IMG/VR virus record: IMGVR_UViG_2700988807_000001 | Coordinates: 1-64,000 of that record | Reading direction: 5' to 3' (one strand) | Origin: a virus | Taxonomy: Duplodnaviria; Caudoviricetes | DNA: 64,000 nucleotides | Shown here: in pieces, positions 8,961 through 49,051 of the stretch | Layout: every line of letters begins with the position of its first letter | Numbering within the stretch: the first letter of the stretch is position 1 | The notes under the pieces: generated by a model | Database searches by the model: none | What the model saw: only the letters and a program-made list of their open reading frames with translations | Told to the model about the DNA's origin: nothing | Made by a program: the position numbers and the translations under genes

Positions 8961-9806
8961 GTGGCGTTTCAACCTAATCCGGGCCATCGAGGAGATCCGC
9001 TATTTTTGGTGGATGTTCTTCGTGCGTTCGGAGTCAAAGTCAAAGAGTTCGACGCTTGGCGTGATCGTGGCCAGGGAGATTTCTTCACCATTTGGGGCGT
9101 CATCGCCCATCATACCGGATCGAACAATGCGTCGGCGGCATCCATTGCTTACGGTCACGAGGGTCTGAAGGGACTTCTCTCTCAGATTCATCTGGATCGA
9201 AATGGTGTCGCCACCATCACCGGTGCGGGTATTGCTTGGCATGCCGGTGTTGGATCTTGGCCTGGAATTCAAACCAACAACGCAAACGCTGTGACGATCG
9301 GTGTCGAAGCGAACTCCGACGGTGTTTCGCCTTGGCCTCCAGAGATGCTGGATGCCTACCATCGGATCTGCGCAGCAATCTGTTGGTTCCTCGGCCACTC
9401 CTCTCTCCGAACTATCGGCCACAAAGAATGGGCCAAGGTTCAGGGGAAGTGGGATCCGGGCGGAATCGACATGGCTCAGTTCCGAGCCAAGGTTCAGTAC
9501 TACATCGACCATCCGCCGTTCATGCCGCCACCACAGCCCGTTACTGAAGCAGGAGAACCAATGGCTTTCTGGGACGATCAAGTACCGACAATTCTTTCGC
9601 CTGAGAAGAGTTTCCCTCGTCATGAATACTTGCAGCTCATCGACATGCACGCCTTCTTGGCGAACACGCAGTCGAAGCAGGTTCTTGATCAAATGAAGTT
9701 GGTTCGAGATGACAATCAGCGCATCCTGAACGAGATGCAGCTCATGCGAGATGACCTCTCTGAGTTGGCTACTGCCGTTCTCAGTGGCGTCAAGAAGGAC
9801 GGTTAA
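8961..9806 (+). CDS. Endolysin, N-acetylmuramoyl-L-alanine amidase (Amidase_2)
   Basis: Zn-amidase motifs HHTG, AWHAG, IGVE, GHKEW, KWDPG; GTG start after AAGGAG. Confidence 0.88.
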   Translation: MAFQPNPGHRGDPLFLVDVLRAFGVKVKEFDAWRDRGQGDFFTIWGVIAHHTGSNNASAASIAYGHEGLKGLLSQIHLDRNGVATITGAGIAWHAGVGSWPGIQTNNANAVTIGVEANSDGVSPWPPEMLDAYHRICAAICWFLGHSSLRTIGHKEWAKVQGKWDPGGIDMAQFRAKVQYYIDHPPFMPPPQPVTEAGEPMAFWDDQVPTILSPEKSFPRHEYLQLIDMHAFLANTQSKQVLDQMKLVRDDNQRILNEMQLMRDDLSELATAVLSGVKKDG

Positions 9807-28814: not shown

Positions 28815-29618
28815 GTGGGGATTAACATGCACATCATCTACGCTGACGGCATCGGGAGTAGCGCTCCGGGACTAACCACCAGTCAGTCCATTCTGCACAA
28901 GGTTGTCGAGCGTCTCATCGAACACAATCCGGTTCACACCAAGTCTCGTGTCGAATGGCCTGCGTCTATGGCGTCGGTAGGCGGACCTCTGTCTTGGACC
29001 GAAGCCTCGAAGATTGGTGTCGCCGATGTTAATCGCATCATAGACACCCACAGTAATCCGGGTAAGCAATTCATCCTGCTCGCATATTCTGGCGGAAACC
29101 GCGTGATCCACGAGTGGATGGAGCAGAACCCGGAGAAGCTTCACAAGATTGCTGCCGTTGGTCTCATGTCCGATCCTTGGCGACCTCGAACCCGTCAGCA
29201 GTACGGGCTGCCTCCGACCGTTGGTTGGGGTATCTGTGGCGAGAAGCTCGGACCCATCATCTCGCATACCTTCTGGGTGAGTGCGCCTGGCGATGCGATC
29301 TCCGACGCTCTTCCTGATGCCATTCTTCGAACGGCTGCCGACGTGTCTGACGTTATGCCTGGTCAGTTCCTTGGCGATCTCGGACGTCACGTCAAGGCCG
29401 GCGATCTCCAATTGGCGTGGAAGATTGGTGAGATCAAGAAGAATCCTCTCGGATGGTTTCTTGGTCTTGGTCCTCGGCTCCAGCAGGCCCGCATCGACAT
29501 CAACGGTTACATGGGCGGAAACCACACCACGGCGTATCTTACGCCTTGGAATGGTGGCCCTTCGTTGGCGCATCGACTGGCTGACACCATCAATTTCCAC
29601 ATCTCACACCCTAGCTGA
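28815..29618 (+). CDS. LysB-like alpha/beta-hydrolase (cutinase/esterase)
   Basis: Nucleophile elbow LLAYSGG, GLMSDPWRP, PGD.I, H..AY; layout typical of mycolyl-esterase LysB. Confidence 0.7.
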   Translation: MGINMHIIYADGIGSSAPGLTTSQSILHKVVERLIEHNPVHTKSRVEWPASMASVGGPLSWTEASKIGVADVNRIIDTHSNPGKQFILLAYSGGNRVIHEWMEQNPEKLHKIAAVGLMSDPWRPRTRQQYGLPPTVGWGICGEKLGPIISHTFWVSAPGDAISDALPDAILRTAADVSDVMPGQFLGDLGRHVKAGDLQLAWKIGEIKKNPLGWFLGLGPRLQQARIDINGYMGGNHTTAYLTPWNGGPSLAHRLADTINFHISHPS

Positions 29619-30020: not shown

Positions 30021-33000
30021 GCCTCATCGAGGACCTCATTGTCGGAATGAAGTTCGACAATAAGCAGTTCGAAGCTGGCGCCAGGATCACCATGGCGACT
30101 TTGGCCCAGCTCAAGGGCAGCATGAACTTCACCGGTGCAAGCAAGGGCATCGACGATGTTCAAGCTTCGGTCAACCGCTTCTCCATGGACAGCGCAGGCG
30201 CTGGTGTTGACACGTTCAGTGCTAAGTTTGTTGCTTTGTCGACGGTCGCTATTACAGCGCTGTCGAATATTACGAACCGAGCTATCGACGCCGGAATCAA
30301 CATCGCTAAGGCTCTTACCATTACGCCCGTCAAGGACGGTTTTGATGAGTATGAGCTGAAGATGGGTTCTATTCAGACCATCATGGCGAACACGTCGAAG
30401 CACGGCACAACACTTCAAGAGGTTACGGCTAACCTCGACGAGTTGAACACGTACGCTGACGAAACCATTTACAACTTCGGTGACATGACCAAGAACATCG
30501 GTCTGTTCACCAACGCTGGCATCGGTGTCGCTGACGCTACGAAGATGATTAAGGGTTTCTCTAACGAAGCCGCGTCGTCTGGTACTAGTGCTCAGGGTGC
30601 CGCCGGCGCTGCTTACCAGCTTTCTCAGGCTCTTTCTGCTGGTCAGATCACCCTCATGGACTGGCGCTCGCTGACTAACGTCGGTATGGGTAACAAGAAC
30701 ATGCAGGAAGGCATCGTTCAGATCGCTGATGCTATGGGCGCTTTCAGTGGCACTGGTATCACGGCAAACGATGTCTTGAAGGACTTCAATGGCTCCCTTG
30801 AGAAGAAGTGGCTCAAGGCCGATGTCATGGAGAACTACCTAAAGATCCAGGCTGAAGGTAACGAAGAAGTCAGCCGCGCAATGATGAAGCAGATCGGTTT
30901 GAGCGATCAGCAAGCCGACGCATTCATCAAGCAGCAGAAAATTGCCCAGGACGCGGCAACCAAGGTTCGAACCTGGACGCAGCTCGTCGGTACGATCAAG
31001 GAAGGTGTCGGTTCGTCCTGGGCTCAGACTGCCGATATTATCCTTGGTGATTTCGATCAGGCTACCGATCTCTTCAGCGGCATCTACAACAAGATCGATC
31101 CGCTTATCGGCGCAATGGGTAAGGCTCGTAACGACCTTCTCAAGGGCTGGGCTGATGGCGGCGGTCGAGACGACATGGTCGCTAGCATCAACAATGTGAT
31201 CGACGGTCTCGTTTCGATCATGCGACCTATCAAGGAAGCTTTTCAGAACATTTTCCCGCCGGCGACGGCAGCGAACCTTATTTCTATCACCGCAGCAATC
31301 AAGAACTTCACTGAGAAGCTCAAGATTGGTGGCGAAACAGCAGATAAGCTGAAGCGCACTTTCTCTGGCGTCTTTGCCATATTTGGTATTGCCTGGGAAG
31401 TCATCAAGGGCGTTGCCAGCGCTTTCGGTAAGTTGTTTGGCGCTGTTGGTCAAGGTGGCGGCGGCTTCTTGTCTCTCACAGCTAAGATCGGCGATTTCCT
31501 CACGAAGATCCATGCGGCCATCAAGAGTGGCGGAGTCTTCACAAAGATATTCGAGGTTCTAGGTACGGTGCTTGCCGTTCCGATCAAGATCTTCGGTAAT
31601 CTTACCGAGGCAGTTGCTAACTTCTTCGGCGCTCTCGGTAACCTCGGCGGAGCCATCGGTCAGGTATACGGTATCCTCGCAAAGGGCGACTTCAAGGGTG
31701 GTCCTTTCTCCGAGGACTCGAAGATTGTCGATATTCTCTTCAGGATTCGAGAAGCTTTCGAGGTTGTCGGTTCCGCGGTAAGTCAGTTCTGGAACATTCT
31801 TGCCAAGGGTGATTTTGTCGGCGGTGTGTTTGGGGAGGACTCGGCTATCGTCGACGGGCTCTTCAAGTTCCGCGACATGATCAAGGATTTCTTCTCGCCA
31901 GGCAACCTAACCAAGATGTTGGGTATCGGTGCTGGCGGTGGACTTGCTGTCGCTATCGGTATGCTCTTGAAGAAGGGCATCAAGTTCGGAGTCGATGATT
32001 CCGAAGGCGGCATGTTCGACACCATCAAGGGAATGTTCGCTGGAATCAAGGGTACGTTTGAAAGTGTTTCGGGCGTTCTCGATAGCTTGACCGGTTCTCT
32101 CACGGCCATGCAGAACAACATCAAGGCGACAGTTCTTCTGAAGATCGCTGCCGCCGTTGGTCTGCTGGCTCTGTCGGTCAAGCTGCTCTCGACGATTGAT
32201 GCTGGTGACCTGGCTAAGTCTATGGCGGCTATCGCCACTGGCTTCGGTATGCTGCTCGGTGCTATGACGGTCATGTCGAAGATTTCTGGCGCCGGCGGGT
32301 TGGCCACATTCCCCGCTATCGCCGCAGGAATGATGCTCATGGCCGGAGCAATCCTTATTCTCGCTGCAGCCGCTAAGGTGTTTGCGACGATGGATTGGGA
32401 CGAGATTCTCAAGGGTCTCGTCGGTGTCGGTGTCATGATGGCTGCGCTTGTTGGTGCGGCATACGGTCTCGGTAAAGCCGAGGGTCCGATGCTTCGCGCT
32501 GGCCTCGCAATGATTCCGTTGGCAATCGGTATCAGAATCTTGGCAACAGCAGTCAAGGCTCTGGGTGACATGGAATGGGACGAGCTCGTCAAGGGCTTGA
32601 TCGGCATGTCCGTGGCTCTCGGTGCAATCACACTGGCGCTCAAGTTCATGCCAGAGGGTATGCCAGCTATCGGTCTTGGTCTCACTCTGATCGGTGCTGG
32701 CTTGTTGGTCGTTGCTATGGCGATCAAGACAATGGGTAATACAGACACCGACGCCCTGGTCAAGGGCTTGATCGGTATATCTGTGGCTCTCGGTGCAATC
32801 ACTCTTGCTCTGAGATTTATGCCGAAGAACATGCCCTCCATTGGCTTCGGCCTCATCATGGTCGCGGGAGCACTCCAGCTTATTACGGGTGCGATCAAGA
32901 CCATGGGTAACATGTCGTGGGATGAGTTGATCCGAGGTCTCGTTGGTCTCGGTGGCGCGATGGCTATCATGACTGTGGCTCTATCCCTTATGAGCGGTAC

Positions 33001-35869: not shown

Positions 35870-36693
35870 GATTTGACAAAGTTATTTTGGCCGGAGCAAC
35901 GCCTATCACTCTGTTCGACCACAAGAACCCACGTTCTACACCATACACAACGAGAACGATTGATGGTCTGGGTCCCACAGAGGTTAATGTCGCCCTTGCG
36001 CAGAACCTTGAAGGTGGGGGTCTGTATATTGGACGACGTCCTCAGCTACGTGAGATTACGGTAAATGCTTCTCTGAACCCGGACTACACAATTGGGCAAA
36101 CGCCGGAGAAACTGAGAGAAGATATTTACCGGTTGGTTCCGGTGAACAGAGATCGATCGTTGGATTTCTGTCTCCTGCTGAACGGGGAGGAACTTGCTAT
36201 CACGCCCGTGTACGTCAAGCGTGTTGATGTCTCCCCGTTCAGTAAGGACACCCTCTTCCAGATCGTTCTGGCGTCTACGTCGGAATACTTCTACAAGAGA
36301 GTTCCTCTACTCGACGAAGCACCGAACTTCAACACCCTGAACCCGAACTTTGTCAACGTTGGGTCCGCCCCCACCGGTTTCAGAGTTCGGGTCAGGTTTA
36401 CCGGAGCGGCAACTCAGTTCGGTTTCTACAGGTACGATCTACCGGATCGAATGCTCGTCACCTACAACTTCCAGACCAACGATATTCTTGAGATTAACAC
36501 AAATCAGGGTAGTCGTGGCGTGTGGTTGACTCGCGGTGGCGTCATGACGAGTTTGATCGGAAATCTGAGTACGGATTCGACCTGGCTTGTGTTGGAATCG
36601 GGAGACAACCCGTTCGTAACATTTGTCGGAATCGGCGCACCGCAGTTCACCTGGCAGCAATTCGAGTATCGTCCTAAGTATCTGGGAGTGTGA
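35866..36693 (+). CDS. Distal tail/minor tail protein
   Basis: Directly after tape measure; Dit-like size and IDGLGP, N.GSAPTG motifs. Confidence 0.7.
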   Translation: MRFDKVILAGATPITLFDHKNPRSTPYTTRTIDGLGPTEVNVALAQNLEGGGLYIGRRPQLREITVNASLNPDYTIGQTPEKLREDIYRLVPVNRDRSLDFCLLLNGEELAITPVYVKRVDVSPFSKDTLFQIVLASTSEYFYKRVPLLDEAPNFNTLNPNFVNVGSAPTGFRVRVRFTGAATQFGFYRYDLPDRMLVTYNFQTNDILEINTNQGSRGVWLTRGGVMTSLIGNLSTDSTWLVLESGDNPFVTFVGIGAPQFTWQQFEYRPKYLGV

Positions 36694-36696
36694 CCT

Positions 36697-38091
36697 ATGG
36701 ATCTCGTAACGCTAAAGGATTGGGTATATCCAACACTTCCGACCCATCCGTGGTACGTTCCTGACGATGCTGTTGGACGCGAGAGTGATCCGCTATATTC
36801 GACGCCGTCGCCTAAGCAGCCGGGGGTATACACACCTCTGAATCTCATCGAGGGCTACACGTCGCTCATTTGGAAAGAAAGCTTTGCCGGCACCAACGGC
36901 ACGTTCGAGCTCAAAACCTACGACGTTCAAAAGACTCTCGATGCGCTTCCCAAGGGTACGCTGGTTAGCCTCCTCGATACCGACGAGGTCTACATCGTTA
37001 CGACTCGCCACATTGGTACGGACGAAGGTGGGGTGGACACGCTTACGGTCTCGGGCGTGAGCATTCTGAAGTTCCTTCTCGATAATCGAATCACCTGGTC
37101 GTACGACCCAACAACCCCGACGCCTATTCGTGCAACCAACGTGAATTTGAACTTCAGGATCCCGGACCACCTAGCGTTTATTTTGTGGTCGGGTCTCGTC
37201 TTCCACCATCGCGAAGGTGGTGTCAGCGGAGGTAAGCCGTTCGAACTTCCGTATGACATCACTGTTCCTCACACGGCAGTGTCTCAAAGTCTGTATGATC
37301 CGTCCAAGGGCGATCTATATTCGACCGAGTGGCCTCCACCAATCGAGTATCGTATTACTTCGATAAACGATCTCATGGCTTTGACGCAGAGGTTTGGCGT
37401 CAGAACAATTAGGCCTCGTGGTGGGTCTGCTTGGATTTACAAGCCTTCATTGGCGTCCAAGTTTGGTGAGTATGATCCGCTGGTGATGCAGACAAACATC
37501 GACAAGATGCTGTTTGACGTCTATGAGGGTCTTGATCGAACTAAGGCTGACGCGAATCGGATCGTGTTTCGGCACGATGCCGGCGATATTGTCAGTTCGG
37601 AATTCTTGGATTCCATCGAAACGTTCAAGAACGTCGTGAATTCACACGCTGAGGTTGATCCGACTAAGACCGCTTTCTCGAACATGTTTCCTCCGGTTGT
37701 TTCCAAGATCCACTACGCGACTGGGTTGCCGGGAAGCACGCCGGCGGACAATGTCAAACCGGGAACACAGTTTTTGATGGGCGAGGTTGCGTCGACCGCC
37801 GACTTGAAGAACTACGGCCTAAACGCGGCTACCAGCGCTCGTATGTCAGCCGACGCATACAAGTATCTTCGAGACAACAAGCGCATCGACATGTTGACTG
37901 CCGATATTTCGCCCGACACGCAGTACAAGTACAAAGTGCATTACAACCTTGGAGACATTGTCTACGTGCAGGGTAAGTATGGCGGGCTGCAGAAGATGGT
38001 GGTCTCTGAATACACCCGCACATCCGAGAACATCGGTGAGAGCGGATACCCGACACTGGTACGATGGGAGGACCCAAGTGGTAGCACCTAA
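36697..38091 (+). CDS. Minor tail protein (baseplate hub-like)
   Basis: IEGYTSLIW.E...G.FEL; Y..HYNLGDIV; V.EY..T....GE.GYPTL C-terminus. Confidence 0.7.
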   Translation: MDLVTLKDWVYPTLPTHPWYVPDDAVGRESDPLYSTPSPKQPGVYTPLNLIEGYTSLIWKESFAGTNGTFELKTYDVQKTLDALPKGTLVSLLDTDEVYIVTTRHIGTDEGGVDTLTVSGVSILKFLLDNRITWSYDPTTPTPIRATNVNLNFRIPDHLAFILWSGLVFHHREGGVSGGKPFELPYDITVPHTAVSQSLYDPSKGDLYSTEWPPPIEYRITSINDLMALTQRFGVRTIRPRGGSAWIYKPSLASKFGEYDPLVMQTNIDKMLFDVYEGLDRTKADANRIVFRHDAGDIVSSEFLDSIETFKNVVNSHAEVDPTKTAFSNMFPPVVSKIHYATGLPGSTPADNVKPGTQFLMGEVASTADLKNYGLNAATSARMSADAYKYLRDNKRIDMLTADISPDTQYKYKVHYNLGDIVYVQGKYGGLQKMVVSEYTRTSENIGESGYPTLVRWEDPSGST

Positions 38092-38119
38092 TTCTTGTCC
38101 GAGGGAAGGAGGTGAAATT

Positions 38120-38704
38120 GTGGAGGAAACAAAACCAAAGTGGCATGCGGTTAAGCCTTGGAATCGTCACGGCTTAATCCTCACCGTCGTTGGTGTTGCG
38201 TATATTCTCATTGGAATCACCTACACCATCGCGCCACCAAGCGAGGCTCGCAGGGAAGCATTACATCTTGCTTTCAGCATCATGCCCTTTAGCTGGTGGG
38301 GTGTCGGTTTCATTGTGGTGGGAATCATCTCCACCATGTCATCTCGTTGGCCGTCGCTACCAAGAACGTTGGGATATTCGACGTTGACTGGGTGGTCTGC
38401 GGCTTGGGCCGGGTTTAATATTGTTGGTGGCCTATCGCAGCACGATACGCATCTATCCTATGCGGCAGGTGGTTTGGCATGGGGATTGATGGGTTTCCTT
38501 TGGTGGGCGATTAGCGGCTTAATTTGTCCACCTAAGGAAAGGGGGGTACGTGGACGCCCTGCCCCATATCGTGAGCCTAGCTGTCGCTTTGATTGCGGCA
38601 TTGTCCGCGTTAGCGACGCAGCGGGCGTCATCGAAAGCAAGTCGAACGGAGAAACAAGAAGCTTCCCGAGCCAGCATGGAGACGGAAGCGTACGAACGAG
38701 CTAG
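38120..38704 (+). CDS. Multi-pass membrane protein
   Basis: GTG after GGAGG; four hydrophobic helices; C-terminal tail overlaps the next gene. Confidence 0.6.
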   Translation: MEETKPKWHAVKPWNRHGLILTVVGVAYILIGITYTIAPPSEARREALHLAFSIMPFSWWGVGFIVVGIISTMSSRWPSLPRTLGYSTLTGWSAAWAGFNIVGGLSQHDTHLSYAAGGLAWGLMGFLWWAISGLICPPKERGVRGRPAPYREPSCRFDCGIVRVSDAAGVIESKSNGETRSFPSQHGDGSVRTS

Positions 38705-41172: not shown

Positions 41173-41199
41173 TCGCAGAAAAAACACGCGCTATAATGA
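41173..41199 (+). promoter_or_regulatory. Cassette promoter repeat copy 7 (no GACCCCTA module; drives tRNA-like RNA)
   Basis: TCGCAGAAAAAACACGCGCTATAATGA. Confidence 0.8.
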
Positions 41200-41201
41200 A
41201 A

Positions 41202-41280
41202 GGAAAGACTCGTAGCTCAGTTGGAATGAGCGTCGTCAGCAATGACGAAGGTCGCAGGTTCGAGTCCTGCCGAGCTTTCC
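41202..41280 (+). ncRNA. tRNA-like RNA without a canonical anticodon loop
   Basis: D-arm TAGCTCAGTTGGAATGAGC, T-arm GCAGG-TTCGAGT-CCTGC, acceptor GGAAAG(A)CTCG/CGAGCTTTCC; anticodon arm TCGTCA-GCAA-TGACGA; no encoded CCA. Confidence 0.72.
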
Positions 41281-41295
41281 TTCTTATTTTTGCCT

Positions 41296-41322
41296 TCGCA
41301 GAAAAAACACACACTATAATGA
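41296..41322 (+). promoter_or_regulatory. Cassette promoter repeat copy 8 (no RBS module)
   Basis: TCGCAGAAAAAACACACACTATAATGA. Confidence 0.8.
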
Positions 41323-41451
41323 GAAGGAAACTTCTCCAATAAGAGAAAGGTGAGACGCGAATGCGTAGGTGAAACTCCTACCCACCTGGCGCAAACAACA
41401 ATAATCACGAGTTTTCAGCGGACCGTGAGCCCATGTTCTCTTATAGTTTTT
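41321..41451 (+). ncRNA. Putative structured small RNA
   Basis: GAGAAG-GAAA-CTTCTC hairpin; ATAAGAGAA/TTCTCTTAT closing stem; internal AGGTG/CACCT, GTAGG/CCTAC and TCACG/CGTGA helices; T-run end; no ORF with an RBS. Confidence 0.55.
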
Positions 41452-47894: not shown

Positions 47895-48053
47895 TTCATA
47901 TTTGAGGAAGAGGGGTTTGGCAAGGGTCCTTTGTAGGGGTCTCGCCCTAGTCCGGATGCCAAACTTAAACGACAGCCGTAGTGCTGTGGGGAAGCAGCGA
48001 ATCATGCTCCCTCGACCTCACCACACACCTATATTTGAGTTGAAAGGATCGTC

Positions 48054-48440
48054 ATGCCTACCATCGATCAAGTCAAGACGCACCTCCGTGAGAACAAGAA
48101 GGTCTATATTGTCGGTGGCGCCTGCCTCGCGGTAGGTGTCCTGGCTGGAACGACTCTTCTTACCAAGGAGTCCCCTGAGATTGTGGTAAACCCCAAGATC
48201 CAGCAGATCATGAGCTGGAAGCCGACAGCAACGTTGAAGGTGCATATCGAGGCGCTTGGAGATCCAGGAAACATCATTCAGGACGTCACAACAGGAACCG
48301 TCTATGCAAGCCAGGGACAGGCGGCTCGAGCTTTGGGCGTCAATCCCGCGCGCATATCTGAGCACTTGTCTGGAAAGATTCCTAACGTGCAGGGTCACTC
48401 ATTCAAGTTCTTGGGTAAGGCTGACTCAATCGCAGGATAA
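48054..48440 (+). CDS. Membrane-anchored protein with NUMOD1-like HTH
   Basis: N-terminal hydrophobic helix; TG.VYASQGQAARALGVNPARISEHL.G HTH. Confidence 0.65.
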   Translation: MPTIDQVKTHLRENKKVYIVGGACLAVGVLAGTTLLTKESPEIVVNPKIQQIMSWKPTATLKVHIEALGDPGNIIQDVTTGTVYASQGQAARALGVNPARISEHLSGKIPNVQGHSFKFLGKADSIAG

Positions 48441-48456
48441 ACACGCCCTATAATGA
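48430..48456 (+). promoter_or_regulatory. Cassette promoter repeat copy 13 (no RBS module)
   Basis: TCGCAGGATAAACACGCCCTATAATGA. Confidence 0.8.
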
Positions 48457-48750
48457 GAAGAAACGATAAGCTTAAAACGCTAATCCTTGAATCGCCCCTT
48501 TAGGGGAGGTCATCCGTAAGCACTGTCTTTGGTTGGAAGGTAACAGCCGCTTATCGTTTTATAACCGCTTGGAACCGCCATTGGGTAGTTCTGGAGGCCT
48601 GCCATTGGGCGGACCTTCGTGGCCTACCGTTTGGGTGGACCACCAATGTTATATTCTCGATGAGAAGATAGAACCGCTTGGAACACCTTTATGAGGAGTT
48701 CTGGCAGCCACCTTTATGAGGAGACCACCAAAGTTCTATCTTCTCATATT
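48455..48750 (+). ncRNA. Putative ~295-nt multi-hairpin non-coding RNA with two homologous domains
   Basis: AAACGATAAGC/GCTTATCGTTT stem; perfect 15-bp ATGAGAAGATAGAAC/GTTCTATCTTCTCAT stem; repeated AACCGCTTGGAAC...AGTTCTGG...ACCACCAA units; no ORF of 60 aa or more. Confidence 0.65.
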
Positions 48751-48755
48751 TCGCA

Positions 48756-48798
48756 TCGCAGATAAAACACGCCCTATAATGAGACCCCTACGAAAGGA
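48756..48798 (+). promoter_or_regulatory. Cassette promoter repeat copy 14
   Basis: TCGCAGATAAAACACGCCCTATAATGAGACCCCTACGAAAGGA. Confidence 0.85.
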
Positions 48799-48805
48799 AC
48801 TGGTA

Positions 48806-49051
48806 ATGACCAAGCTGGAAATGCTGAAGCTCGCTGTTTCTTCGATCGTCGGTGTCGGTACCTCCAAGATCGTCAAGTCCATCATTGCCAACAATGTCGA
48901 ACTCGATACTCCGGTAGACCAAGTTACGGTCACCGCGGGATCGTTCGTCATCGGCGCGATGGTCGCAGACGCTTCGAAGGACTACACCGATGCCAAGATC
49001 GACGAAATTGCCGAAGCCTTCAGAAGCTTCAGAGAAACCGTCCAGAACTGA
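48806..49051 (+). CDS. Small hypothetical protein
   Basis: MTKLEMLK... behind the repeat RBS. Confidence 0.7.
   Translation: MTKLEMLKLAVSSIVGVGTSKIVKSIIANNVELDTPVDQVTVTAGSFVIGAMVADASKDYTDAKIDEIAEAFRSFRETVQN

Follow-up and report, generated by a model that had tools for sequence, protein, structure and literature searches.

Candidate structured RNA cassettes downstream of a phrog_27818-type gene in Rhodococcus phage ReqiPepy6 and Gordonia cluster DJ phages

Rhodococcus phage ReqiPepy6 (Pepy6), which is said to have been described with Poco6 by Summer et al. in 2011, carries a gap without genes (48441–48806 of the window, i.e. of the whole 64-kb stretch of Pepy6 DNA analysed here), and the question raised by this locus is what the gap encodes. 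In it, one promoter-motif copy precedes ~295 nt of DNA that folds strongly and lacks a conserved reading frame. The initial annotation had proposed a single non-coding RNA with two homologous multi-hairpin domains, acting as a sponge or decoy for a host protein, perhaps a defence factor. The 296-nt stretch has a folding energy of -109.5 kcal/mol (z = -5.1; none of 200 shuffles as good), and since the minus strand scores similarly (z = -5.3), the strand cannot be told from energy alone. The three flanking proteins scanned match phrog_27818, phrog_7539 and Phage_TAC_17, and the single tRNA that ARAGORN finds in the window (41206–41280) lies away from the RNA locus. The features referred to below are, by position in the window:

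48054..48440, + strand: upstream gene, 128 aa, with an N-terminal hydrophobic helix and a C-terminal NUMOD-like helix-turn-helix (phrog_27818, E 5.8e-71)
48440..48458, + strand: promoter-motif copy AACACGCCCTATAATGAGA, with TATAAT at 48449–48454, overlapping the stop codon of the upstream gene and without ribosome-binding module
48455..48459, + strand: GAGAA, the predicted first transcribed bases, pairing with TTCTC at 48654–48658 and so clamping D1 and unit A together in the minimum-free-energy fold
48459..48560, + strand: D1, candidate structured RNA of ~100 nt with central hairpin CGCCCCTTTAGGGGAGG
48560..48653, + strand: unit A, candidate three-head RNA (model R1, 97.3 bits, E 2e-24)
48660..48747, + strand: unit B, candidate two-head RNA (fold z = -5.76), with tail ATTTCG
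48766..48784, + strand: second exact copy of AACACGCCCTATAATGAGA, with ribosome-binding module, serving the downstream gene
48806..49051, + strand: next gene, 81 aa (phrog_7539), conserved in the DJ phages and in Poco6; it delimits the variable slot on the right

The promoter copies give the first indication of how the locus is organised. The motif AACACGCCCTATAATGAGA has 13 matches on the + strand of the window at up to three mismatches and none in 100 shuffles, and a looser regular expression recovers 14 copies, 11 of them with the module CCCCTAYGAAAGGA and a start codon behind. The three copies not followed in this way lie at 41192, 41315 and 48449, the last being the RNA locus, so that the earlier claim of a dedicated promoter copy without ribosome-binding module, here the exact copy at 48440, is borne out. 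Behind the copy at 41192 sits the tRNA gene, which is a precedent for stable-RNA cassettes. As the downstream gene has its own promoter copy (48766), the RNA is not needed as a leader of that gene. In its accessible text, the announcement of the DJ phage Vardy (PMC9671010) describes the motif as 50 bp long with a -10 box, and this promoter motif is all that such announcements describe there.

The initial reading of one two-domain RNA did not hold, while its hairpin repeats did: the ~295-nt stretch consists of three fused, separable cassettes, namely D1, unit A with three hairpins and unit B with two, and D1 is a family of its own. Stand-alone homologues of each cassette occur in Gordonia cluster DJ phages, where each has a promoter to itself, a stem that closes it end to end and a U-rich tail, and the end-to-end GAGA...TCTC clamp is seen in every stand-alone homologue read. 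Only D1, the first module, sits behind a promoter copy in Pepy6, units A and B having none; unit B keeps ATGAGAAGA (48660–48668), which corresponds to the 3' part of the promoter motif and looks like the remnant of a lost copy. D1 is likewise fused to a unit in Odesza.

D1 is closed by an 11-bp stem in which AAACGATAAGC (48461–48471) pairs perfectly with GCTTATCGTTT (48549–48559). Ten Gordonia phage records match it by blastn at 72–81% identity, and its homology and covarying fold are common to the Tanis-group phages, Pherobrine and Odesza. In an alignment of four distinct sequences, 93.4% of cells pair and 9 of 34 pairs have changed on both sides, which none of 500 shuffles equals; folded alone, D1 gives z = -2.70. 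Judged by this alignment, D1 is a conserved RNA family.

Unit A has a 6-bp outer stem, P1 (TATAAC/GTTATA; 48560–48565 with 48648–48653), and a short inner stem, P2 (TTG at 48569–48571 with CAA at 48644–48646). These enclose three hairpins whose tips, at 48576–48587, 48600–48611 and 48625–48637, are similar, not identical (CGCCATTGGGTA, TGCCATTGGGCG and TACCGTTTGGGTG), GCCATTGGG lying at 48577 and 48601 and CCGTTTGGG at 48627. Its homologues by blastn are in Rickmore and Odesza. Unit B is closed by a perfect 15-bp stem (48660–48674 with 48733–48747) and displays as tips the exact direct repeat CACCTTTATGAGGAG (48684–48698 and 48709–48723), which is absent elsewhere in the 64-kb window; it matches Artorias, FortCran and Perkunas by blastn. 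The two units share AACCGCTTGGAAC, found at 48563 and 48672 and at no other place in the window. Both long stems, of 11 and 15 bp, and the repeats AACCGCTTGGAAC, CACCTTTATGAGGAG, GCCATTGGG and CCGTTTGGG were thus recovered where the initial annotation had placed them. The tails are U-rich but interrupted, e.g. ATATTTCG. A consensus promoter/terminator scan detected neither the repeated motif nor the closing clamps: it flagged solely an inner hairpin of D1 (48530–48549), leaving the closing stems, and P1 with its tail, unflagged.

The multi-head unit family is defined by a covariance model, R1, and an alignment, A5. As R1 was trained on five rows including unit A, the score of unit A is partly by construction; sequences outside the training set score 110.5 bits (Avazak) and 62.6 bits (Petito). 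Unit B gives no + strand match to R1 at E <= 1 and was placed in the family through another alignment, A1, and the blastn matches to Artorias and Perkunas. A5 holds seven distinct three-head members and had been fitted to the model; of its 273 cells 95.2% are paired, and both sides have changed in 18 of 39 pairs. None of 500 shuffles reaches these values, and slid controls pair at 35–49%. Covariation among homologues, which had been proposed as a check, was accordingly found for both groups, from few and related sequences in each case (seven units, four D1). The earlier remark that stems vary yet stay paired also stands, the stems covarying around tips that stay identical. P1, for example, reads CCCAC/GTGGG in Artorias and AGGAAC/GTTCCT in Petito. 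Moreover, G-U pairs are kept at A5 columns 45–72 and 75–99, where the opposite strand would have C-A mismatches, and the covariation supports both folds, of the unit family and of D1, as structures of the + strand. The family fold is also the predicted minimum-free-energy fold of unit A and of the Artorias, Rickmore and Avazak RNAs folded alone. All seven members have ACC(G/T)CTT and GAC at the junctions, and no loop motif is conserved across the unit family.

As had been claimed, the RNA appears to be non-coding: no + strand frame is open across the homologues, and stops interrupt each of the three + frames of the unit in Rickmore, Odesza and Perkunas. On the minus strand a frame is open in six of the seven units; coding there was rejected on the tip lengths, which vary by 2 nt per hairpin among members, and on the gene direction in Conley, all of whose genes run in one direction according to the accessible part of its announcement. 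A tRNA or tRNA-like element was rejected as well, with no cloverleaf by ARAGORN or RF00005 and with misfitting junctions (5 nt before hairpin 1, 0 nt between hairpins), and so was an anticodon-loop mimic, since a change of the inner T-A pair to G-C shows loops of 5 nt, not 7.

The claim that this structured RNA is undescribed agrees with Rfam 15, which at gathering score gave only the tRNA at 41206 in the whole window, just a chance snoRNA match of 12 bits in 48300–48900 at E <= 10, and no match for nine homologous loci at E <= 1. A loose pattern scan of IMG/VR gave no R1 match among 80 loci of the matches listed, and a tighter pattern returned three stretches, i.e. Rickmore, Avazak and one coding chance match. 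The metagenome scan yielded 14 stretches, whose single weak R1 match (16.8 bits) is read as coding sequence and not as a family RNA, and none of the 28 stretches that fit a pattern in bacterial genomes was confirmed. In seven public sequencing runs, at most 0.10 of the sampled words were present; contigs from four of these runs covered only the promoter motif and, in a wastewater run that is probably DNA, 42 nt of unit A, which says nothing either way on expression. Taken on their alignments, the cassettes represent two exchangeable RNA families that covariation supports and Rfam lacks, and that the RNA family is real we hold to be very probable.

To what are these RNAs tied? The upstream protein, which has 153 homologues at E <= 0.001, matches Pfam PF22083 (I-HmuI NUMOD-like) at E 0.0065, under the curated cut-off. 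Its AF2 model has a mean pLDDT of 78.9 (89–96 for residues 71–120), and the best Foldseek match is a DNA-binding protein, 8b6e_A (E 6e-3; TM by target 0.82), with further matches to I-HmuI (1u3e, E 0.075) and to the I-TevI DNA-binding domain (E 1.2). In the model, then, the C-terminal fold resembles DNA-binding rather than RNA-binding domains. Protein-anchored IMG/VR searches returned six and three loci, of which L190–L192 were new and L193 was a 28-residue partial match. The 3' flanks were read for 17 distinct homologues, and in 16 the gene is directly followed by a module-less promoter copy with a small RNA behind it that is clamped end to end: Pepy6, Tanis, Pherobrine, Odesza, Untouchable, OhMyWard, Artorias gp44 and gp55, Avazak gp45 and gp56, Conley, Petito, Perkunas, Rickmore, and metagenomic L191 and L192, the seventeenth, that of Arthrobacter phage Qui, being an ambiguous case. 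The adjacency of such RNAs to a phrog_27818-type gene is new here. Relatives without the upstream gene, Poco6 included, gave no match to the unit model R1, and the gap of Poco6, the sole gap read among these gene-less relatives, holds no such RNA. Among the associations found for the RNA, the strongest leads to a gene of the phage itself, the upstream one, and not to a host protein.

Protein comparisons add to this association. Before the helix-turn-helix domain, Artorias gp55 and Avazak gp56 agree at 91 of 91 positions, but inside it at only 30 of 40; the corresponding figures for the Tanis and Odesza homologues are 83 of 90 and 27 of 44, so that on these alignments the domain diverges together with the RNA. 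As the two lie less than 20 bp apart, adjacency and joint divergence could reflect plain linkage. Over their first 50 kb, Artorias and Avazak have too many divergence islands to pick out another partner gene. The called start of Artorias gene 56 falls inside the RNA. Pepy6 itself has, in its whole genome, one member of the protein family, but three RNA modules, and two RNAs behind one gene are also found in Odesza, Conley, Perkunas, Pherobrine, L191 and L192; because RNAs outnumber genes in these cases, a strict pairing of one protein with one RNA does not fit.

The hairpins of the Rickmore, Artorias, Perkunas and Avazak RNAs have identical tips, three in each RNA. The Artorias RNA carries CACCTTTATGAGGAG three times, identical at 15 of 15 bases to the unit B tip of Pepy6; between the Artorias and the Perkunas tips one base differs. 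In Avazak the threefold tip is CCCCGTTATACGGAG: relative to Artorias, every copy has G-C in place of the inner T-A pair, and the RNA is otherwise 89.5% identical; on this comparison, tips evolve in concert within one RNA. Gordonia rubripertincta NRRL B-16540 was the isolation host of Avazak, Artorias, Perkunas and Petito alike, and these phages carry three clearly different tip types, which argues against a conserved host target. Neither the tip sequences nor their complements occur elsewhere in the Pepy6 and Avazak genomes. Two candidate functions for the tips were rejected: a dispersed operator, for the absence of tips elsewhere in both genomes, and antisense pairing, for an RNAduplex comparison of 7 tips with 11 upstream genes in which cognate pairs did no better than non-cognate ones.

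We suggest that the locus is an untranslated + strand RNA gene whose product acts in trans as a multivalent docking RNA, a proposal to which we give an even chance. The single promoter copy would drive an untranslated transcript of ~295 nt, with shorter forms ending after each module being possible. P1 would form between its first transcribed bases and the 3' end, with a U-rich tail behind, and a short P2 would enclose two or three hairpins whose lower stems differ and whose tips of 13–17 nt are the same within one RNA (similar only in unit A). Such an RNA would probably be stable and could offer two or three equal docking sites, binding copies, or an oligomer, of one partner. D1 has a single head, which multivalency leaves unexplained and which counts against the docking model. 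Since the candidate partner varies from phage to phage, it would more probably be encoded by the phage than be a conserved host protein, and the RNA slot may be functionally tied to the adjoining gene for the protein with a membrane helix and NUMOD-like helix-turn-helix. Our leading but weak guess, one that we consider doubtful, is that the RNA has this very protein as its partner and perhaps titrates or localises it. By the positive-inside rule, the conserved, positively charged N-terminus of the protein (KVKxHxxxNKK) would place the C-terminal domain outside the cytoplasm, away from the RNA, which would count against contact. Lambdoid boxB-type hairpins are phage-specific in sequence and co-evolve with a phage protein, and the boxB/N system of lambda nut and the put RNA of HK022 resemble the RNAs described here in being small promoter-proximal hairpins. 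They differ in that here the 5' and 3' ends pair and a U-rich tail comes after them, pointing to a discrete RNA, that the next gene in Pepy6 has its own promoter, and that no arginine-rich N-like protein was identified.

The best placed of the rival explanations, although an unlikely one, is that the modules are cis-acting punctuation, i.e. elaborate terminators, insulators or 3'-end stabilisers of the upstream gene between close strong promoters, with no partner in trans. At the end of every module there is indeed a closing stem with a U-rich tail behind it (TTCTCATATTTCTC and variants); the next promoter usually follows, other cassettes of this kind in relatives end in clear U-tracts (L025), and RNA cores at the same slot differ widely between phages. 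A terminator, however, requires neither its own promoter nor a P1 that includes the first transcribed bases, and punctuation would hardly account for junctions conserved in 7/7 members, or for tips held identical within an RNA yet changing between close relatives. D1 is ~80% identical between the Rhodococcus phage and Gordonia phages, above the ~66% of the neighbouring protein, and in Tanis, Artorias and Avazak the gene after the RNA has no promoter copy of its own, so that termination must be incomplete there.

Ranking after this, and improbable, is a DNA-level element in which the tips act in duplex DNA as direct-repeat sites, either iterons or operators, bound by the upstream helix-turn-helix protein and serving a replication start, membrane tethering of phage DNA or autoregulation, with the RNA being incidental. 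The similarity of the C-terminal domain to the DNA-binding modules of I-HmuI and I-TevI and to a DNA-binding sCTP would suit such an element, as would the location of the Artorias locus, ~4 kb upstream of a DNA primase/polymerase gene. Sites that are the same within a locus and different between relatives, changing with the adjacent domain, recall the initiator-iteron pattern, which is established for lambdoid O/ori. Against this, the stems flanking the tips and P1 covary and keep strand-specific G-U pairs, neither of which duplex sites need, and the tip spacing of 24–28 bp (~2.5 helical turns) would put the sites out of phase. The tips are nowhere else in the genome, one protein would face up to three tip types in Pepy6, and the domain may be extracytoplasmic.

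The third explanation, for which we see only a small chance, is the original one of a sponge or decoy titrating a host protein, perhaps a defence factor. Multi-hairpin sponges and decoys are an established principle, known for CsrB/RsmZ, ToxI mimics and RNA anti-CRISPRs; each RNA here has two to three equal hairpins, and in Pepy6 a strong promoter copy precedes five, of two kinds. Different RNA cassettes are also stacked in Pepy6 and several DJ phages, an arrangement common in anti-defence loci. The distribution of tips speaks against it: phages of the one strain NRRL B-16540 carry the three tip types, whereas Pepy6 from Rhodococcus equi and Artorias from Gordonia have a 15-nt tip in common, and no loop motif is conserved family-wide. 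These tip sequences make a conserved host protein unlikely as target, and the proposed defence factor found no backing in the neighbourhood either, none of the three flanking proteins scanned being defence-related. The known sponges also differ in detail. CsrB, RsmY and RsmZ are, like the RNAs here, small, untranslated and built of several copies of one short hairpin motif, but their GGA loop motif is not shared (the loops here are UUAUG, UUAUA, AUUG, GUUUG and CCUAU), there is no Rfam match, tips differ between same-host phages, and two to three heads sit on a fixed junction frame; to our knowledge, Actinobacteria lack CsrA. Type III antitoxins (ToxI, CptI) and phage pseudo-ToxI resemble these RNAs in having repeats identical within an RNA and different between systems, and a locus that tightly adjoins one protein gene and diverges with it. 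Their tandem repeats of 34–40 nt contrast with the tips of 13–17 nt that alone repeat here (period 24–28 nt, on non-identical stems); their RNA lies upstream of the gene and not downstream, and their neighbour is a ToxN-type endoribonuclease, while here it has a membrane helix and a helix-turn-helix and no ToxN/AbiQ family flanks the locus.

ColE1 RNA I is ~100 nt long with three stem-loops, which the ~100-nt three-stem-loop RNA recalls. Highly improbable, and the weakest reading, is nonetheless a base-pairing or priming RNA, with antisense loops or a transcript that primes or opens an origin as ColE1 RNA II/RNA I or cluster A mycobacteriophage prophage origins do: RNA-dependent origins exist in actinobacteriophages according to the accessible part of PMC7157519, and these systems share with the locus a structured non-coding transcript of ~100–300 nt, a dedicated promoter and an actinobacterial mobile element, or a three-stem-loop RNA; the loops here, however, are just 3–5 nt, tip complements are absent elsewhere in Pepy6 or Avazak, RNAduplex showed no cognate preference, three identical loops are unexpected for kissing one antisense partner, no antisense partner is present, and the phage is lytic.

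The small RNAs of phages infecting Actinobacteria are almost unstudied, and the words Gordonia, Rhodococcus, mycobacteriophage and Actinobacteria are absent from a 2025 review of phage small RNAs (PMC12197685). The present RNA families are tied to a single family of proteins, whose environmental members number more than 150. Should the RNAs prove mere punctuation, annotation would still be corrected, as for the start of Artorias gene 56. The docking reading can draw on phages that are natural tip variants (such as Artorias and Avazak) and on cultured, non-pathogenic Gordonia hosts, which together constitute a cheap test system for the partner and for an RNA–protein specificity code. More speculatively, and in our estimation improbably, the membrane/helix-turn-helix gene and the multi-head RNAs may together form a polymorphic two-part specificity system of lytic actinophages, in which a variable recognition helix and a variable tip are matched and the RNA serves as antidote, decoy or localiser. 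Extra orphan cassettes, stacked in phages like Pepy6 and bearing tips that match the variants of other phages, would then neutralise the proteins of competing co-infecting relatives, amounting to an RNA-based immunity or exclusion code between phages.

The RNA stretch lies in a 366-nt intergenic gap of Pepy6, a Rhodococcus equi phage assigned to cluster CC in one report (PMC13313380). The full IMG/VR record is 76,797 bp, and blastn places ReqiPoco6 (Poco6) and the Gordonia phages of cluster DJ (Deejayvirinae) nearest to the window. In Poco6, the closest relative, both the 128-codon gene beside the gap and the entire RNA stretch are absent. On re-checking, all coordinates and strings that the initial annotation had given for 48455-48750 proved correct, and the locus comprises:

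48054-48440, left gene of the gap, 128 codons
48440 and 48766, exact copies of the promoter string
48461-48471 with 48549-48559, 11-bp stem
48563 and 48672, starts of the two AACCGCTTGGAAC copies
48660-48674 with 48733-48747, perfect 15-bp closing stem
48684 and 48709, exact 15-nt direct repeat
48806-49051, right gene of the gap, 81 codons

Nearby, amid small promoter-driven genes, ORF 47253-47894 matches the Pfam family Phage_TAC_17 (tail assembly chaperone; E 2.9e-55). A conserved structured stretch at 47897-48030 (also 2360-2480 of compared locus L001), flanked by an upstream gene of 213 aa and by the 128-aa gene, carries an end clamp, GAGG...CCTC, after a TATATT box (fold z = -2.3). It is almost unaltered in Poco6, although the remainder of the locus is missing there, and could represent either a terminator or an additional small RNA.

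The promoter motif gives 13 plus-strand matches at up to three mismatches, against none in 100 shuffles. A regular expression recovers 14 copies, 11 of which lead directly into CCCCTAYGAAAGGA and a start codon; the three lacking these stand before a tRNA at 41206, at 41315 and at the RNA locus itself, bearing out the annotated promoter copy without a ribosome-binding module. For the DJ phage Vardy, a motif of 50 bp that includes a -10 box has been described (PMC9671010). Module-less copies elsewhere than behind the 128-aa gene family drive a tRNA or single-hairpin RNAs, and no repeated tips were seen by eye in the latter. The sole tRNA gene (41206-41280; region 41183-41290) lies directly 3' of such a copy; after it come a U-rich tail and then the following promoter copy. 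ARAGORN reads it as an Ala tRNA whose anticodon, AGC, is unusual among bacteria, and by our own reading its anticodon loop, TCAGCAA, has C at the expected U33. The third module-less copy drives a folded stretch of ~125 nt (41306-41450; z = -3.3) with an end clamp, the tail TTATAGTTTTT and no repeated tips; its 3' part (GTGAGCCC.ATGT.TTCTC) is similar to the RNA cassette at 857-950 of a metagenomic relative, L025.

The stretch had been described as a single RNA with two homologous domains, a view that did not survive blastn of its separate parts, which resolved three modules, each with its own set of relatives. Relatives of D1 (48459-48560) occur in the Tanis group, Pherobrine and Odesza, together 10 Gordonia phage records, those of unit A, with three hairpins, in Rickmore and Odesza, and those of unit B, with two, in Artorias, FortCran and Perkunas; the Avazak unit as query added Captrips and Petito. 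Stand-alone modules of Gordonia phages run from a promoter copy through GAGACCC, the RNA core and GGGTTCTC to a U-rich tail (for example ATATTTCTC), GAGACCC being the first transcribed bases, with which GGGTTCTC pairs. Pepy6 has all three modules joined after a single promoter, and GAGAA (48455-48459) pairs with TTCTC (48654-48658), enclosing D1 and unit A jointly. Unit B starts with ATGAGAAGA, the 3' portion of the promoter motif without its TATAAT box, which may be read as a decayed promoter. In Odesza, D1 and a unit are fused likewise.

The 296 nt of the gap fold with z = -5.1 (minus strand, z = -5.3). A covariance model of the unit family, built from five members, matched seven distinct three-head members (Pepy6 unit A, Rickmore, Odesza, Artorias, Perkunas, Avazak and Petito), and none of the other related loci searched. 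On the seven-member alignment, the closing helix P1, the short inner helix P2 and the three hairpins pair in 95.2% of 273 cells; sliding the partners by 1-3 columns left only 35-49% pairing. The covariation in homologues proposed as a check is present, with both sides changed in 18 of 39 pairs and none of 500 shuffles attaining any of five measures. All these figures are biased high, because the alignment had been adjusted to fit the model and its members are relatives of one another, yet single cases are clear: Artorias has CCCAC/GTGGG as P1 and Petito has AGGAAC/GTTCCT, and six members share TTG/CAA as P2, with TTA/TAA in Rickmore. When unit A and the Artorias, Rickmore and Avazak units are folded singly, the minimum-free-energy structure of each is the family fold. 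For D1, an alignment of four distinct sequences pairs in 93.4% of cells, with both sides changed in 9 of 34 pairs and none of 500 shuffles as good. At two unit-family positions G-U pairs are kept where the other strand would have C-A, and the RNA is therefore on the plus strand, the same strand as the promoters. No plus-strand frame is open across homologues, in keeping with the annotation as non-coding. Public sequencing runs hold mere traces, and the contigs aligned from them span little except the promoter motif.

Lower stems are unlike among the hairpins of one RNA, yet conserved between phages, and each is capped by a tip of 13-17 nt. In most members the tip consists of a C-G pair, a mismatch, a 3-4 bp stem and a 4-5 nt loop; Rickmore and unit A deviate at the tip base. 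Within any single RNA the tips are alike.

Repeated tips of individual RNAs
Rickmore: CGCCGTTTGGGTA, 3 copies
Artorias: CACCTTTATGAGGAG, 3 copies
Perkunas: CCCCTTTATGAGGAG, 3 copies
Avazak: CCCCGTTATACGGAG, 3 copies
Petito: CACCCGCCTATCGGGAG, 2 copies
metagenomic phage L192: CACCCGATAAGGGAGA, 3 copies

The Artorias and Avazak units are 89.5% identical and differ mainly in their tips, the same four changes (one a compensating T-A to G-C pair) recurring in every copy. Hence the tips are exchanged together on an inherited frame. A simple recent duplication is disfavoured, since the stems would have been copied too. Artorias and Perkunas tips are one base apart. The same slot in other DJ and metagenomic phages holds further end-clamped RNA types without annotation, each with its own repeated tips (L002 1790-1890; L186 1120-1200; L184 1110-1215; L185 1085-1190; L190 1905-1990; L019 3530-3620; L191 1890-2090), including ACTTGTCATTGCGACTCGTTT, GGAAGCATTGCGCATC, GGCGATGC and YTCACGA loops, each twice. 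The start of Artorias gene 56 has probably been called too early, because it falls within the 3' strand of the RNA closing stem (1251-1290 of the Artorias locus L006) and a better ribosome-binding site (GTGAGGTACAAGATGG) accompanies an ATG situated 26 nt further downstream.

The 128-aa neighbour belongs to phrog_27818, with 153 homologues at E <= 0.001, chiefly metagenomic; in the phage collection the family occurs in 25 records, with two copies each in Artorias, FortCran and Avazak. Among 17 distinct homologues whose 3' flanks were inspected, 16 have the stop codon followed directly by a module-less promoter copy and an end-clamped small RNA, most with 2-3 repeated tips on cores of several unrelated types. 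For the 17th, in Arthrobacter phage Qui, the flank shows the promoter copy together with a direct repeat of 14 nt, with no clamp seen and a 45-codon gene annotated. The unit model found no match in relatives without the gene (Poco6; DJ loci L017, L018, L020 and L024; metagenomic loci), and the Poco6 gap, the sole gene-less gap inspected directly, holds no such RNA. The helix-turn-helix domain diverges along with the RNA, unlike the remainder of the protein.

Residue identity before and inside the domain, with the state of the RNA
Artorias gp55 / Avazak gp56: before 91/91, inside 30/40; different tips
Tanis / Odesza: before 83/90, inside 27/44; diverged D1
Tanis / Pherobrine: before 60/90, inside 35/44; near-identical D1

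The island of divergence in the DNA begins at the domain border and stops past the RNA. Artorias and Avazak were compared over their first 50 kb, where the background identity is 95-96%, and both loci of gene plus RNA rank with the stretches that diverge most (Artorias 31901-32400, gene 44 and RNA; 38001-38200, RNA and the portion of gene 55 that encodes the helix-turn-helix); other sharp islands lie at 9301-9600 (gene 14), 29201-29500 (gene 35) and 36501-36900 (gene 53).

Joint inheritance of gene and RNA is expected from adjacency alone. The whole Pepy6 genome has one family member and three RNA modules, and in several DJ and metagenomic phages a single gene is followed by two RNAs. The protein has a hydrophobic helix (residues 15-36) and a confidently modelled C-terminal domain (pLDDT 89-96), structurally closest to the small DNA-binding domains 8b6e_A, I-HmuI and I-TevI, with a sub-threshold match to an I-HmuI NUMOD-like domain. 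Its conserved basic N-terminus suggests, by the positive-inside rule, that this domain faces outward. Binding of the tips by the protein is rather unlikely, and is treated as a lead because of the adjacency, the mismatch in RNA and gene number, the DNA-binding-like fold and the possibly outward-facing domain.

On the most likely reading, the RNA would be transcribed as a stable, end-clamped, untranslated molecule acting in trans, whose equal hairpin tips would serve as docking sites for several copies, or an oligomer, of one partner, and this partner would differ from phage to phage. Four other readings are less likely. The repeats could be iterons bound on duplex DNA by the neighbour protein, a reading with which its fold agrees; against it stand the covariation and the kept G-U pairs of the plus strand. 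Mere punctuation or termination would account for clamps and U-rich tails, and leaves aside the tips replaced in concert. The initial annotation, its observation confirmed and its interpretation supported in part, had favoured a sponge for a host protein; repeated tips suit this reading. Against it, the Pepy6 unit B tip equals that of Artorias in 15 of 15 bases despite differing host genera, and Avazak, Artorias, Perkunas and Petito, all isolated on a single host strain, have three clearly different tip types among them. A base-pairing or priming RNA is countered by the lack of an antisense relation between the tips and the upstream gene, and of further tip copies elsewhere in the Pepy6 or Avazak genomes.

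Rfam 15, the search the annotation had proposed, holds no matching family, and the literature searched, which does not include the first description of Pepy6 (Summer et al. 2011), yielded promoter-motif announcements only and nothing on these RNAs; the words Gordonia, Rhodococcus, mycobacteriophage and Actinobacteria do not appear in a review on small RNAs of phages published in 2025 (PMC12197685). A docking RNA with multiple hairpins would be of a known kind, and the neighbour gene would be a specific candidate for its partner.
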